A DNA stretch of 64,000 bases from Escherichia coli (lineage in GTDB: Bacteria; Pseudomonadota; Gammaproteobacteria; Enterobacterales; Enterobacteriaceae), in assembly GCF_003334305.1 (NCBI RefSeq), contig NZ_QOWS01000004.1; one strand, given 5' to 3'. Of the stretch, positions 38,613 to 42,658 are shown in pieces. How positions within the stretch are numbered: position 1 is the stretch's first letter; every line of letters starts with the position of its first letter. The notes below the pieces were generated by a model. The model was given only the letters and a program-made list of their open reading frames with translations, searched no databases and was not told the origin of the DNA. The position numbers and the translations under genes are program-made.

Positions 38613-41312
38613 TCAACCAACCTTGCCAATCAATCCTTCCGTAGCCGAATACCCGCAACTTTCGTCATCGTTGACTAAAATCACGTTTGCCATCTCCGGA
38701 TCTTGTCGCTGTTCAATGCACCACAGCCTGAACGCCTCTCCCTCCAGTAAAGAAAACTCATCCCGATGTTTTTTCCACCAGCTTCGGCGCACTCTGACAA
38801 CGCTCATTTCCCATGCGTGAGCACCGGTGGCATAAGGCTTCACCACACCGTCAATACAGGTAGCCAGCCACAGGGAAACAGACTCCTCAGCCAGACGTGT
38901 CGACAGTTTTTCCGGGAGGTAATCGTTGATATTGGCGGCATAGCCGGGCCTGAAGTTCAGCACAAACTTTTTAGCCATTGCGCGATCGCAGTAATATTTG
39001 CCCACTTGCTCCTGCTCGCTGCGGGCAAATCCTTCCGGCATTACCACGTCCTCACCGTAGACGGATTCAATAAGAAGCCGGGCTGCGTATGGCATCTGAA
39101 TAGCACCTTGCTCACGCAGCACACGCTGCGTCAGCCAGATTCGCCCATGATCGGGATAGACAAATGCACTGTTACGCATGGCACTGCCAAACCATTCGTC
39201 GCCAGGAGAGTCGTCCCAGACGGGAGCCAGAATCAGCAATTCAGGGGGGGAACGCTCGTCCTTTCCGTCACGCTTTAACTGACCATTAATATCGCGGATA
39301 TGCCGCTGTAATCGTCCTGCTCGCTGAATCAGCAAATCAACAGGGGCCAGGTCGGAGATCATTTCGTCCAGGTCAATATCCACGCTTTGCTCAATTACTT
39401 GTGTACAAACAATGACTTGCGACGCTCTCTGTAAACTACAATATTTACCAAAGCGTGCCAGTGTCTCCGTTTCAATTCGCTGGCGATCGCTAAAAGCAAA
39501 GCGGCTATGAAAAAGTGAAAGGCTGGAAGCAGGAATGACGCCGCGGGCAAGCAGCTGACGATGAACCTTAATAGCGTCATCGACAGAATTCCGGATCCAG
39601 GCGATGCATTTCCCCTGACTTACCGCCGATTCGATACGCGCAATACACTCTTGTTCACTATGAAGCCAACCCACGCTGACGCTACGCTCAACGTCTTTGC
39701 GCGTCGCTACCCGGTGTGAGTTCACATCGGATTTCGTGACATGCGTCAGCCAGGGGTAATCATCCTTTTCCAGGAACGGAGCTTCTTGCAGGCCCTCTGT
39801 ACCCCGCGCAAAGGCAGCGACGAGTTTGTCGCGCTGCTGTTGAGATAACGTGGCAGAAAGCAAAATAACGCTGTTTCCGCCACGCGCCTGCCGCTCGATC
39901 AACCCTTCAAGAATGCACGACATGTAAGCGTCACAGGCGTGGATCTCATCAGCCAGCAGGATTTTGTTACTCAGCCCCAGAAGCCGCAGATTATTATGTT
40001 TGAACGGCATCACCGCCATCATCGCCTGATCCAGCGTGCCGACGCCAATTTCAGCCAGCAACGCCTTCTTGTTACTGTCGGCAAACCAGGCCGCACATCC
40101 CTGACTGAACGTTTGTTCATCCGGTTCTTCTGACCCGACTAAATCACCAGACCAGAGTGATTCATTAAAGCGGTCCATTAATGTGCGGGCACTATGTGCC
40201 AGCACCAGGCTGGGGCGGGATTCTGGCGAATAGAAAGCAAGCCAGGTTTTGACCAGCCGATCGTACATGGCATTGGCCGTTGCCATTGTTGGCAGACCAA
40301 AAAACAGCCCCTGAGCTTTCCCCGCAGCTATCAACCTGTGCGCCAGGATAAGCGCCGCTTCTGTTTTACCTGCGCCAGTCACATCTTCCAGAATAAATAA
40401 CTGCGGTCCTTGCTGGCTGATATCCAGATCCAGCACCTTTTGCTGTAACGGTGTCGGATTCTCAATAAAAGGAAACAGCGTATTAATTCCGTTGAAAGGC
40501 GCGACTTTTGCTTTTAGAGGAAAGACGGTTAAGGCGTTTTGAGCCTGAATTAAAGTTTTCTGCCAGTAACCTTTAATATCCATTGGGTGTGCGACGCGTG
40601 GAAAAAATCGCGTTGACGAACCCGTCCAGTCTGCGAGCACGACGGTTGCAGAGATATACCAGGAAAGGTGTTTTATAAGTTCAATGCCCTCATCATCATC
40701 CCAGAATGCGGGGATCTCTATGAGCGGAAACAGTGGTTTGATTTCAAGGAGAAAATCTCGTGCTGCAGCTTTGTCTTCAGGCAGAAAATTATCCAATTCA
40801 TCCATACGATCAGGGGGCCGACCATGATGCCCTGTCGTCACGGGCATCCACATTTCTATCACTCGCCTAAGTTTGCGCGGAGAGAGCGAAGATGAAGGAA
40901 GTAACTCCTGACATTCACTTAAATAATGATTCCACAACCAGTAGCCCAGCGTTGAATGAGAGATTTTTTCGTAATTTTTTCTGGCACCTTCCTGAATCTT
41001 GAGTTCAGGGGGCAGGTAAAGTTGTTGAAAAGAGCGGGCAAATTTTCCAATATCGTGCCAGCACAGCAACCAGGCGAAAAATTGAGCCGCCTGTTCCTTG
41101 TCAGAAATCCCTAATTGACGAAAATAATCAGCCAGCCCGAAGCAATTTCTTTTAACCATTAAATAGCCCATCGCGGCTACATCCAGCGAATGCCAGCAAA
41201 GAAGGTGATAGTCGTCGCCCCCGTCTTTCTCGCCGCGTCGGGTTTTTCCCCAGAAATCAAAAAAAGTCACAATATTTTTATCCTTCAGTAAACTTAAAGG
41301 ATATTTACGCAT
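38613..41312 (-). CDS. cas3: CRISPR nuclease-helicase Cas3 (HD domain + SF2 helicase)
   Basis: 899 aa with HD motifs (HSLDVAA, WHDIGKF), Walker A TGAGKTEA and a DEAH-like ADEIHACD. No clear SD at the annotated ATG, so the exact start is uncertain. Confidence 0.92.
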   Translation of the reverse strand: MRKYPLSLLKDKNIVTFFDFWGKTRRGEKDGGDDYHLLCWHSLDVAAMGYLMVKRNCFGLADYFRQLGISDKEQAAQFFAWLLCWHDIGKFARSFQQLYLPPELKIQEGARKNYEKISHSTLGYWLWNHYLSECQELLPSSSLSPRKLRRVIEMWMPVTTGHHGRPPDRMDELDNFLPEDKAAARDFLLEIKPLFPLIEIPAFWDDDEGIELIKHLSWYISATVVLADWTGSSTRFFPRVAHPMDIKGYWQKTLIQAQNALTVFPLKAKVAPFNGINTLFPFIENPTPLQQKVLDLDISQQGPQLFILEDVTGAGKTEAALILAHRLIAAGKAQGLFFGLPTMATANAMYDRLVKTWLAFYSPESRPSLVLAHSARTLMDRFNESLWSGDLVGSEEPDEQTFSQGCAAWFADSNKKALLAEIGVGTLDQAMMAVMPFKHNNLRLLGLSNKILLADEIHACDAYMSCILEGLIERQARGGNSVILLSATLSQQQRDKLVAAFARGTEGLQEAPFLEKDDYPWLTHVTKSDVNSHRVATRKDVERSVSVGWLHSEQECIARIESAVSQGKCIAWIRNSVDDAIKVHRQLLARGVIPASSLSLFHSRFAFSDRQRIETETLARFGKYCSLQRASQVIVCTQVIEQSVDIDLDEMISDLAPVDLLIQRAGRLQRHIRDINGQLKRDGKDERSPPELLILAPVWDDSPGDEWFGSAMRNSAFVYPDHGRIWLTQRVLREQGAIQMPYAARLLIESVYGEDVVMPEGFARSEQEQVGKYYCDRAMAKKFVLNFRPGYAANINDYLPEKLSTRLAEESVSLWLATCIDGVVKPYATGAHAWEMSVVRVRRSWWKKHRDEFSLLEGEAFRLWCIEQRQDPEMANVILVNDDESCGYSATEGLIGKVG

Positions 41313-41506
41313 ATATTAAAAATTATCTGTGATATATATCATTCAATAAAATATTTACATTATGAATAATCAAATAATTTTCATCCGTAATATATATGAA
41401 TAATAAACATAGGCATAATATTCACATAAACAATATAAATTAAAAAAGGGTGCAGGAGACCAAACCATCACAATTCAGTACGCGGGGTTTTACCCCCGCG
41501 TGGTGG

Positions 41507-41659
41507 CTACTTCTTCGATTCGTAAGCGAGAACTGCCTTAAACTCCATACCACGTTCTCTGATACTCAACTCACACAACGAGTCGCCTACCATCAGCGTG
41601 AATCCCAGTACTGTAAAACACAGCACTATGATTGCCACAAGGGCATATTTTGTCAGCAT
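41507..41659 (-). CDS. hok: Hok-family type I toxin (50 aa membrane peptide)
   Basis: My translation is [50 protein letters not shown]. It has an N-terminal TM helix and conserved Cys residues, and is very close to the HokE-type sequence as I remember it. GGAGG RBS. Not in the ORF track because it is under 60 aa. Confidence 0.85.
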
Positions 41660-41757
41660 GTCTTGCCTCCCTGCAAAGAAGAGACTAACATTCGAATTGT
41701 TTGGGTTCGAACGTAAGCCTCAGGTTGATAGAAATATCGCCTGGGGCTTTTGTCCAT
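41653..41757 (-). CDS. mok: mok-like leader ORF translationally coupled to hok
   Basis: 34-codon [41 protein letters not shown] lies 7 nt upstream. Its stop overlaps the hok start (ATGCTGA). Confidence 0.5.
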
Positions 41758-41800
41758 CTGGAACCTCGCGAATGCTTAACGCCAGACAGCCTCAAGCACC
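41741..41800 (+). ncRNA. sok: Putative Sok-type antisense RNA (coordinates approximate)
   Basis: Plus strand has TTCGAA-N17-(TGa)TAGAAA at 41706-41734, a promoter with an extended -10. The predicted transcript is antisense to the mok SD and start and to the hok mRNA 5' end. No clean U-tract terminator is visible. Confidence 0.3.
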
Positions 41801-41867
41801 CGACGCCATTCTATACCTGATAATTCTTCCAGCGGCGTTCACGTTTAAAATCAGGAATACTGCTCGC

Positions 41868-41906
41868 AAAATAAAAACGCCCCCATCATTTCTGACAGAG
41901 GCGTTT
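41868..41906 (-). terminator. cysJIH operon terminator
   Basis: Minus strand reads AAACGCC-18 nt loop-GGCGTTTTTATTTT, just downstream of the cysH stop. Confidence 0.5.
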
Positions 41907-41923
41907 AATTTATCCGGCAATAT

Positions 41924-42658
41924 TTACCCTTCGTGCAATCCACATTCCCTTTTTAAGCCAAAGAAACGTGTTTCTTCTTCCGACATGCCAGGTTCCCATT
42001 TACGGGTTGTATGGGTATCACCGACCGATAAATATCCTTCATCCCATAATGGGTGATATTTCAGGCCATGTTTTTGCAGGTACTGATAAATAGTTCGGTT
42101 ATCCCAGTCGATAATCGGCAGCACTTTAAATACGCCACGCTGAATTGCCAGCACCGGTAAATTGGCGCGACTGCCGGATTGTTCACGGCGCAGGCCAGCA
42201 AACCAGGTTTGCGCGTTAAGTTCTTTCAGAGCCCGGTTCATCGGTTCGACTTTGTTGATGTCATTGTACTTTTCAATGCCTTCAACGCCCTGTTCCCACA
42301 GTTTGCCGTAGCGTGCTTCCTGCCAGGCGGCGCTTTCGGTAGCGCGGTACACTTTCAGGTTGAGCTTGAGTTTGTCCGTTAACTCGTCAATAAAGCGGTA
42401 GGTTTCCGGGAACAGATAGCCGGTGTCGGTGAGGATCACCGGAATATCCGGGTGAATCTGATTCACCAGATGCAGGCTCACCGCCGCCTGAATGCCAAAG
42501 CTGGAAGAAAGTACATATTCACCGGGCAGATTATCCAGCGCCCAGGCAACGCGGCCTTCAGCGTCCAGTTTTTCCAGTTCGGCGTTAGTTTCTGCCAGCG
42601 CCAGAATGCGATCTACCTTCGGCAGTTCGTTCAGGGCGTTTAGATCGAGTTTGGACAT
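41924..42658 (-). CDS. cysH: Phosphoadenosine phosphosulfate (PAPS) reductase
   Basis: 244 aa from [23 protein letters not shown]... with the C-terminal ECGLH motif. The ORF-track start at 42811 is an extension through a REP element. Confidence 0.96.

Follow-up and report, generated by a model that had tools for sequence, protein, structure and literature searches.

Between cysH and cas3 on the Escherichia coli chromosome lies a short interval in which an original prediction, made from the letters of the DNA, described a structurally complete hok/mok/sok-type toxin-antitoxin locus, the intact counterpart of a sokX remnant in K-12. The question that it raises is which parts of such a module can actually be found there, how the toxin might be controlled by them, and whether the neighbouring cas3 has any share in the matter. 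The window analysed here is the whole stretch of 64,000 nucleotides of E. coli DNA in which this interval is found, and all positions refer to it.

Identity and surroundings of the locus

The region is very probably an intact chromosomal hokX/sokX type I toxin-antitoxin locus of E. coli. On the hok-sense strand the Rfam covariance model RF01794, a scan that had been proposed as a check, reaches 113 bits where the gathering score is 59 (E = 6.5e-25) in a full-length match (model positions 1-157) whose position 1 aligns at 41801, and the 50-aa peptide encoded there matches Pfam PF01848 (HOK_GEF) with 43.1 bits vs 22 (E = 3.1e-11). The sequence elements and family matches are far beyond chance, and all the predicted elements are present within 1 nt of the coordinates first given for them. 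"Structurally complete hok/mok/sok" is nevertheless an overstatement, as hok, Sok and the tac/fbi pairing were borne out but mok and the proposed antisense promoter were not. The implied novelty is also absent, because the locus is already annotated and published. RefSeq calls the CDS a "Hok/Gef family protein" (WP_000956460.1, identical to the Hok of the window), and this CDS is carried by 4,221 of 5,426 complete E. coli genomes (~78%). The name hokX/sokX can be found in two papers (PMC7232551; PMC12736100), while a paper of 2014 (PMC3903273) had already described the linkage of hok/sok to the cas-E variants and related its presence or absence to the two variants of E. coli. hokX/sokX is a known, ordinary feature, not a new one.

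The cysH stop lies at 41924 and the hok leader starts at 41801; on the other side, the cas3 ATG is found at 41312, on the same strand and ~130 nt downstream of the 3' end of the hok mRNA, as had been predicted. The alignment with K-12 is 97% identical over 289 nt (41657-41945) and stops at 41657, exactly at the hok ATG, and K-12 was thus rightly said to retain a sokX remnant only, namely the leader/sokX part. That the intact form is the ancestral one is supported by syntenic orthologues adjoining cysH in five genera (Escherichia, Pseudocitrobacter, Kluyvera, Lelliottia, and Scandinavium). Compared with hokX/sokX of E. coli, the locus is the same and has the same position beside cysH, and nothing substantive differs, the window having a Phe15 and an open 34-codon ORF.

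Regarding the paralogues, the closest named one is hokE/sokE of K-12, with 76-80% peptide identity, which likewise encodes 50 aa, has a GC hairpin after the stop and a Sok 5' end ~40-44 nt upstream of the hok AUG, and, as in hokX, has no mok annotated in its curated record. It differs in its ybdK-entD site and in an IS186B located 19 nt after its stop, whereas the locus in the window has no IS. With only this degree of identity and another chromosomal locus, a HokE identity was rejected, as was a HokA identity, the NCBIfam HokA equivalog NF007290 scoring 57.7, below its cut-off of 89; the NCBIfam Hok subfamily NF007279 scored 41, below a cut-off of 73. hokC/mokC/sokC (gef) of K-12 is also chromosomal, with the same layout and an IS186 target after the stop, but has an annotated mokC whose start is found 57 nt upstream, inside the sokC complement, a start that hokX lacks. 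The hok/mok/sok locus of plasmid R1, whose prototype elements were taken from PMC9841398, and srnB share with the window a Hok-family peptide, a Sok promoter overlapping the hok SD region, the tac/fbi pairing, an alternative 5' stem and a GC hairpin in the 3' UTR. Plasmid and window Hok have ~43% peptide identity, and RF01794 gives 90 bits on the plasmid locus vs 113 bits on the window. Unlike these R1/F-type loci the window locus is chromosomal, and post-segregational plasmid killing is therefore not its role.

The Hok peptide and the folds of its mRNA

The hok CDS is found at 41507-41659 on the minus strand in the ORF list, Pfam and RefSeq, preceded by the SD GGAGG (41666-41670), and its 50-aa product is exactly the peptide first quoted. 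Residues 5-46 cover profile positions 1-42 of the 42 of PF01848, and residues 5-24, read from the sequence, are uncharged, forming a hydrophobic N-terminal segment. The SLCE and LAYE motifs are conserved in an alignment of 73 sequences, no internal stop is found in any of the 73 homologues, and variable columns per codon position number 32/21/46, the third position being the most variable. Judged from these alignments, purifying selection acts on the Hok peptide. The allele of the window has Phe15, and most sampled strains have Cys15 (WP_000956458.1).

The -10 box TAGAAT of the predicted hok promoter, within TATAGAAT, can be read directly at the site claimed for it (41813-41808, minus strand), with 6 nt between it and the downstream start of the Rfam model match; a convincing -35 could not be recognized for this promoter. 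Of 14 syntenic orthologues 12 keep TATAGAAT, those of Lelliottia and Scandinavium differing from it by one base, and upstream of it the orthologue sequences diverge, the block conserved across genera starting at the -10 box and ending at GCACCC. Accordingly placed by sequence, the ends of the hok transcript would be G41801 and the U-run after fbi, giving a full-length mRNA of ~355-360 nt (41442-41801, minus strand). At the 5' end GGGUGCUUGAGGCU begins at 41801, 1 nt away from the GGUGC first placed at ~41800. The 3' tail followed by U6 was correctly recognized, but one C had been dropped from it and its coordinates were 1 off; the tail reads GGUCUCCUGCACCC at 41461-41448 (minus strand), with the U6 next to it at 41447-41442.

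These two ends are predicted to pair with each other, as the original prediction had proposed. The full-length hok RNA has a minimum free energy (MFE) of -132.8 kcal/mol (z = -3.8), and in both the MFE and centroid folds the GGGUGC and GAGGCU of the 5' tac element (GGGUGC-UU-GAGGCU, 41788-41801, minus strand) are paired with the GGUCUC and GCACCC of the 3' fbi element (GGUCUC-CU-GCACCC, 41448-41461, minus strand). tac is nearly invariant across 73 homologues, and the tac/fbi helix is 100% paired in the 73 sequences with one compensatory CG-to-UA change, figures to be read with the fact that alignment A1 was built with regular expressions demanding tac-like and fbi-like boxes, so that tac/fbi conservation in it arises partly by construction. 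A fairer test than A1 is a free search for the best complement in 67 loci, where a GCACCC-type box is found 49-60 nt past the hok stop and the flank diverges straight after it. The change in question, tac C6 to U, is compensated in fbi both in one homologue (L072) and in a plasmid srnB-type locus (GGGUGU/ACACCC), which has the same CG-to-UA pair. Over the whole consensus structure, 98.3% of cells are paired vs 35-52% when the partners are slid, and double changes occur at 14 pairs vs 9.2 in shuffles.

When the 3' tail is removed in silico, nt 1-10 of the RNA fold onto nt 23-32 (41770-41779, minus strand), an alternative tac partner (ucb-like or metastable) indicated by the fold and by covariation. 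This second helix is 93% paired in 73 sequences, its pair 7-28 being UA in 26, UG in 24 and CG in 23, and in L072 the tac change is matched by changes both in fbi and in the alternative stem. It may correspond either to the tac/ucb stem or to the metastable stem of R1, between which folding does not separate. Further downstream, the GC hairpin of the 3' UTR, CGCGGGG-GUAAAA-CCCCGCG, is located where it had been claimed (41500-41481, minus strand) as an 8-bp helix, undamaged in the window; it is 97% paired, two closing pairs covary, and it is a probable stop for 3' trimming.

SokX, its promoter and the 34-codon reading frame

The antisense RNA can be placed from K-12, where sokX (b4701, NC_000913.3 2887353-2887411, plus strand) is a curated ncRNA that maps to 41699-41757 on the plus strand of the window (59 nt). 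RNA-seq of K-12 showed SokX under every condition, and its predicted fold has a 5' tail followed by a hairpin and a U-rich 3' end (-24.7 kcal/mol, z = -4.6). As the curated sokX 5' end fixes the start, the Sok promoter would be found at 41663-41691 on the plus strand, with a -35 TTGCCT (41663-41668), N17, a -10 TAACAT (41686-41691), N7 and start G41699. Its sequence is identical in K-12, the plasmid srnB-type locus has TTGACC...TACAAT at the homologous place, and all of 73 homologues share GGCAA, the complement of the -35 core. This assignment from curated K-12 sokX and family homology was used in place of a consensus promoter/terminator scan of 41250-41950, which flagged neither the hok promoter, nor this Sok promoter, nor the one first proposed, and is therefore uninformative for promoter assignment; the scan picked up only the cysH terminator (41906-41875) and a spurious site inside hok, with no local intrinsic terminator after hok.

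On the hok mRNA, the target of SokX is predicted, both by the Rfam consensus and by the two folds, to be a hairpin (ACGUUCGAA-CCCAAACAA-UUCGAAUGU) within a GAGGC/GUCUC stem (41688-41714, minus strand). Three of its pairs show compensatory changes, and 78% of cells are paired in an alignment that contains gaps. SokX, whose 5' tail is complementary to the 5' arm and loop of this hairpin, appears to be a cis-encoded antisense RNA transcribed from a promoter of its own across the hok leader. The antisense promoter of the original prediction, TTCGAA-N17-TGaTAGAAA, exists as a string at 41706-41734, but a role as the Sok promoter is not supported for it, since the curated sokX RNA encloses it and its -10 coincides with the loop of the Sok hairpin.

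A similar fate befell mok. The ORF so named is present at 41757-41653 (minus strand, 34 codons) with GAGG-N6-AUG, and its TGA overlaps the hok start as AUGCUGA, just as described, but a conserved mok role could not be upheld. A complete R1-style module, in which this ORF would be a functional mok and a Sok transcribed from 41706-41734 would cover the mok SD and start, has some points in its favor besides this arrangement. In R1, translation of mok is required for that of Hok, and it need only extend as far as the hok SD (PMC9841398), a condition that an ORF of this kind would satisfy; moreover, the 3' end of curated SokX (...GUCCAU) is complementary to the AUG at 41757. However, of 11 Hok-intact E. 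coli strains sampled, 5 have an in-frame stop that shortens the ORF to 18 or 6 codons, a TAA being produced by the natural variant C41703T; the ORF is missing from nearly all orthologues, and among 76 scored homologous loci it is open from its ATG in one only, that of Shigella flexneri. Kluyvera, Lelliottia, and Scandinavium have lost both its AUG and its GAGG, and the alignment test found no codon-position periodicity in it, variable columns per codon position numbering 23/24/22. It also starts 98 nt upstream of hok, whereas mok in R1 and hokC starts ~57-58 nt upstream. In plasmid loci the mok-type AUG is found 5 nt after a conserved GAGG, ~58 nt upstream of hok, but the homologous position reads ACG in the window and ACG or GCG across homologues. 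The promoter that this module would require lacks the final T of its -10 in addition to lying within sokX, and the family-wide Sok promoter is located elsewhere. A full R1-style organization is accordingly very unlikely.

No conserved mok was found in either alternative frame of the 76 scored homologues. A mini-mok starting at the only conserved in-frame ATG (-32, 41691-41689) was considered and rejected, as this ATG, which has no SD, is the complement of the Sok -10 TAACAT. The 34-codon ORF is probably lineage-specific rather than a conserved element, the window carrying a minority variant in which it is open. To judge by the homologues compared, there is no conserved mok leader ORF here, unlike in R1, hokC and srnB.

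Control of hok, losses of the locus and proximity to cas3

On these elements a mode of action for hokX/sokX can be proposed. A weak promoter (-10 TAGAAT) would give an mRNA of ~357 nt whose 5' tac pairs with its 3' fbi, a pairing shown computationally and by conservation and covariation, and which, by analogy with R1 hok, would keep the full-length RNA closed and untranslated. Slow 3' trimming towards the conserved GC hairpin would remove fbi, and the freed 5' end is predicted by the fold, backed by covariation, to refold onto nt 23-32. Meanwhile the 59-nt SokX (41699-41757, plus strand), transcribed from TTGCCT-N17-TAACAT as homology to the curated and detected K-12 sokX indicates, would use its 5' tail to pair with the target hairpin, located ~40 nt ahead of the hok AUG, leading, if R1 is a guide, to decay of the duplex. 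A drop in SokX would then allow Hok to be translated from GGAGG/AUG41659, and the peptide, like others of its family, would damage the membrane. The 34-codon ORF could serve as a coupling device in this strain; since it is not conserved, Sok control in the clade is more probably exerted by duplex-dependent decay or by structure than via mok.

Whether such a system still acts can be questioned, given the fate of the locus in other strains. The GC hairpin is a recurrent IS186/IS421 target: in strain YPE12 an IS421 interrupts the locus at this hairpin, and in K-12 IS186 is found 19-20 nt past the stops of hokE and hokC. Within E. coli the locus has been inactivated independently by the K-12 deletion, by this IS421 insertion and by an IS element inserted into the leader, and from this repeated inactivation it follows that hokX/sokX is dispensable and possibly counter-selected. 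It can be hypothesized that the locus is an inert relic whose structure is preserved while promoter activity or toxicity is too low to matter. Besides these losses and interruptions, the lack of a -35 in the hok promoter and low read counts over the Rfam-defined region in EDL933 would fit such a state, and a passage of PMC7232551, citing Pedersen and Gerdes (1999), calls the K-12 chromosomal hok loci non-functional. Yet the peptide appears to be under purifying selection, the RNA helices show compensatory changes across genera, the locus is kept in 78% of genomes, and the allele of the window bears none of the known lesions, with no IS and with ORF, SD, tac, fbi and hairpin intact. An inert relic is, on balance, unlikely, and an intact hokX/sokX remains the preferred reading.

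With regards to cas3, readthrough from hok might add to its expression, or an addiction module might stabilize cas-E. hok and cas3 are on the same strand, and the ~130 nt that separate them contain no consensus intrinsic terminator; every strain with the E1-type cas-E variant has hok/sok (PMC3903273); and in K-12 the cas3 ATG follows 92 nt after the end of the remnant of the hok promoter and leader. However, strains without cas-E genes keep hok/sok beside cysH, with iap as the other neighbor, and K-12 conversely has cas-E without hok. Among loci of other genera, cas3 is found within the 1.5-kb flank only in Pseudocitrobacter vendiensis, the orthologues of Kluyvera, Lelliottia, and Scandinavium having none there, and the conserved block ends at fbi, the spacer to cas3 not being conserved. 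The stable partner of hok is therefore cysH, not cas3, and because hok stays with cysH in strains and genera without cas3, a functional link to cas3 is unsupported; such a tie is extremely unlikely. Nothing relevant emerged when the literature was searched for a cas3 promoter that had been mapped or for a transcript joining hok to cas3. Separately, the idea of a divergent cas3 allele in the window was discarded, the apparent 90% identity to strain 120899, which matches the window exactly in its hok region, reflecting a ~144-nt duplication in the cas3 of that strain.

The value of these results is mainly corrective: the true SokX RNA and its promoter are now placed in window coordinates, the supposed mok is a probably lineage-specific ORF and not a conserved element, and the proximity of cas3 is secondary to a far older association with cysH. 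There is only a very small chance that the HokX/HokE clade lacks any mok leader and has a SokX route unlike that of R1, and that transcripts from the hok promoter read into cas3. If true, SokX or the folding of the hok leader could be an unrecognized post-transcriptional input into Cas3 levels.

Identity and distribution of the locus

On the minus strand, the gene order is cysJ, cysI, cysH (stop 41924), the hokX feature, cas3 (ATG 41312) and casA, with a strong intrinsic terminator for cysH at 41906-41875 in a consensus terminator scan. All elements listed in the original prediction can be found by minus-strand reading of 42100-41200 together with an ORF listing. Direct reading gives the hok promoter -10 box TAGAAT (41813-41808) and the mRNA 5' end GGGUGCUUGAGGCU (from 41801), followed on the same strand by a 34-codon ATG ORF proposed as mok (41757-41653) that ends in a TGA overlapping the hok start (AUGCUGA). 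The SD GGAGG (41670-41666) lies 5' of the 50-aa hok ORF (41659-41507), which encodes the peptide as originally quoted, and further 3' are the GC hairpin CGCGGGG-GUAAAA-CCCCGCG (41500-41481) and the 3' tail GGUCUCCUGCACCC (41461-41448; one C longer than first reported), then U6 (41447-41442).

As anticipated, family models recognize the locus: RF01794 from Rfam gives a full-length match to 41801-41644 (113 bits vs a gathering score of 59, E = 6.5e-25), and the Hok peptide scores 43.1 bits against Pfam HOK_GEF (threshold 22). A chance origin of the element set is ruled out by these matches. With the narrower NCBIfam HokA and Hok-subfamily models, the peptide scores under both cut-offs. RF01794 is named "sok antitoxin"; its match covers 157 positions of the hok-sense strand, from the 5' tac box to the hok start (41644-41801, minus), so the hit strand is not that of Sok. 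Pipelines using it for annotation give SokX the wrong strand and length, e.g., for sok_15/sokX (152 nt) in the EDL933 table of PMC5331693.

The locus is real but already known, the name hokX/sokX having been given to it in the cysH-iap region (PMC7232551). Among urological isolates, hok and sokX adjoin cysH in 90%, the rest carrying sokX alone as in K-12 (PMC12736100), and hok/sok has been described in all E. coli strains save those with the E2 (K-12-type) cas-E variant (PMC3903273). When the 631-nt region was compared by megablast with 5,426 complete E. coli genomes, part of it was found in all of them, with the RefSeq label "Hok/Gef family protein" beneath the match; a search with only the hok CDS and 3' UTR matched 4,221. 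The region of strain 120899 is 100% identical to the window, with the same protein, WP_000956460.1. E. coli without type I-E cas genes retain hok between cysH and iap, and the hok CDS is missing from K-12-type strains. K-12 does keep only a sokX remnant, as first proposed: the curated ncRNA (NC_000913.3 2887353-2887411, plus strand) sits in a 289-nt stretch 97% identical to window 41657-41945, and homology ends exactly at the hok ATG. That the window carries an intact hokX/sokX module can be stated with high confidence.

Pairing of the mRNA ends

The 359-nt RNA 41801-41443 folds with an MFE of -132.8 kcal/mol (z = -3.8), and the fold-back proposed from the sequence is borne out by structure prediction, tac (41788-41801) and fbi, its 3' complement (41448-41461), pairing as GGGUGC:GCACCC and GAGGCU:GGUCUC in MFE and centroid structures alike. 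For comparison, 79 related loci were gathered, one genome per species; 14 species-representative loci have cysH immediately upstream (Escherichia, Pseudocitrobacter, Kluyvera, Lelliottia, Scandinavium and a single unclassified Enterobacteriaceae isolate). Their alignment displays a conserved block from TATAGAAT to GCACCC whose flanks diverge abruptly, which indicates a well-delimited transcript. In 67/67 loci scored, a free search for the best complement to the first six nt of the mRNA located one 49-60 nt past the stop that forms six pairs (Watson-Crick or G-U). In one locus (L072), the pair has become GGGUGU/ACACCC, a compensatory change also found in a plasmid srnB-type locus.

The RNAalifold consensus on an alignment of 73 full-length hok mRNAs retains the tac/fbi helix, the 5' hairpin, the GAGG/CUC stem and the GC hairpin. 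In this consensus, 98.3% of cells are paired, vs 35-52% with partners slid, and two-sided changes occur at 14 pairs vs 9.2 in shuffles, figures to be read knowing that the assembly patterns demanded tac-like and fbi-like boxes and that the structure itself comes from these sequences. An mRNA shortened by its last 35 nt is predicted to pair its 5' end with nt 23-32 instead. The alternative helix has 93% pairing, with UA, UG and CG all seen at pair 7-28, and the L072 tac change is compensated here too. The R1 model opposes a closed full-length mRNA to an open truncated one (PMC9841398), and the predicted, mutually exclusive pairing of tac with fbi or with nt 23-32 is the expectation of that model.

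SokX and the mok reading frame

Curated K-12 sokX maps to 41699-41757 (plus strand, 59 nt), and its promoter, identical in K-12, comprises TTGCCT (41663-41668), a 17-nt spacer, TAACAT (41686-41691) and 7 nt to G41699. The antisense promoter first proposed, TTCGAA-N17-TGaTAGAAA (41706-41734, plus strand), is present as a string but falls inside SokX, which has its own promoter upstream; its TAGAAA is the Sok hairpin loop, without the final T of a -10 box, and no evidence of its use was found. SokX RNA has been detected in K-12 under all conditions tested. GGCAA, the complement of the Sok -35 core, is invariant in 73/73 homologues, and the plasmid srnB-type locus has TTGACC...TACAAT at the homologous position. 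In the predicted SokX fold (-24.7 kcal/mol, z = -4.6), a 5' tail that stays mostly open precedes a long hairpin, and the 3' end is rich in U. A hypervariable triplet (UUA/CAG/CUG/UCG, 41714-41716; same column in L002-L091) lies immediately 3' of the conserved GAGG, at nt 16-18 of SokX, in a leader otherwise nearly invariant within E. coli, and may adjust the specificity of Sok for its target among paralogues.

Regarding mok, the R1 frame starts 58 nt upstream of hok, and its translation to the hok SD is required (PMC9841398). K-12 mokC likewise starts 57 nt upstream of hokC, within the sokC complement, and the srnB-type locus has an AUG 5 nt past the conserved GAGG. Under the same covariance model, the plasmid mok-type AUG aligns with ACG in the window and with ACG, GCG or ACA in other homologues. 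The 34-codon ORF starts 98 nt upstream of hok and, among 76 scored homologues, is open from its ATG only in the window and one Shigella locus; its ATG and GAGG are missing in Kluyvera, Lelliottia and Scandinavium. By codon position, variable columns number 23/24/22 in this ORF, vs 32/21/46 in hok. Disruption in close relatives without consequence is seen for mok (shortened to 18 or 6 codons in 5/11 sampled E. coli/Shigella strains whose 50-aa Hok is intact), not for hok. The sole conserved in-frame ATG (41691-41689) lacks an SD and is the reverse complement of the Sok -10 box, which accounts for its conservation without translation. The closest named paralogue, hokE (76-80% identity), has no mok in the curated K-12 record. 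While hok, sok and tac/fbi are intact, "structurally complete hok/mok/sok" was therefore overstated, the mok ORF being unconserved with ACG at the homologous start.

Allelic lesions, cas3 and proposed mode of action

Independent disabling routes exist in E. coli: the K-12 deletion starting at the hok ATG, IS421 (IS186 family) in the GC hairpin ~22 nt past the hok stop in some strains including YPE12, and, in strain F2_81, an IS element (integrase-core transposase) between the leader/SD and the hok ATG (~window 41663). The window allele has none of these, with promoter box, tac, Sok promoter, SD, ORF, hairpin and fbi intact. K-12 hokE and hokC carry IS186 19-20 nt past their stops, the same kind of site as IS421 at hokX; the GGGG-N6-CCCC hairpin (window 41481-41500, uninterrupted here) is a recurrent insertion site. 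E. coli O157:H7 TR01 has a hybrid allele, ~28 nt of K-12 type after the hok ATG and then normal hok, annotated in RefSeq as a 42-aa Hok; it either arose by recombination or reflects an error of assembly. In Pseudocitrobacter (L004, L079, L011), cysH-hok is near-identical to E. coli (CysH 97-98%, Hok 94-100%), with further paralogues elsewhere; recent transfer or contamination could explain this. This Hok clade is also represented two or three times over in Klebsiella, Kluyvera and Scandinavium genomes (L016, L048, L050 and L058, listed with Pseudocitrobacter).

The predicted hok-cas3 distance of ~130 nt on the same strand was confirmed, and a consensus scan of the interval revealed no intrinsic terminator. 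Judging from sequence comparison, a dedicated functional link is unlikely, although readthrough may occur, because the conserved neighbour of hokX is cysH (in other genera, most orthologues adjoining cysH lack cas3 in a 1.5-kb flank), hok and cas-E occur apart (cas-E-less E. coli retain hok, K-12 retains cas-E without hok), and the spacer 3' of fbi is not conserved. This 130-nt spacer (41312-41447, minus), from the hok 3' end to the cas3 ATG, is extremely AT-rich and unconserved outside E. coli. The cas3 promoter presumably lies in it, along with nucleoid-protein silencing sites, but a consensus scan detected no promoter. In K-12 MG1655 (L083 3220-3412 = window 41657-41801), the E2-type cas3 ATG follows only 92 nt after the end of an orphan hok promoter, leader and ATG. 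Transcription of the hok leader, which SokX overlaps, could in principle extend into cas3; no literature on such transcription was found. Window cas3 has the standard length (2,700 nt), strain 120899 has an in-frame ~144-nt duplication inside the gene (L001 5371-5377 vs window 40054-40204; 947 vs 899 aa), and K-12 Cas3 has only ~30% identity over the N-terminal 450 aa.

The locus being already known, the significance of its recovery is low. With regard to its action, we infer transcript ends, processing, Sok action and toxicity with lower confidence in each step than in the identity of the locus. Intact hokX/sokX would act like R1 hok/sok in pairing its mRNA ends, refolding once the 3' end is trimmed and being controlled by the antisense RNA SokX; unlike R1, it has no conserved mok, so Sok would probably act by duplex-dependent decay or structure.
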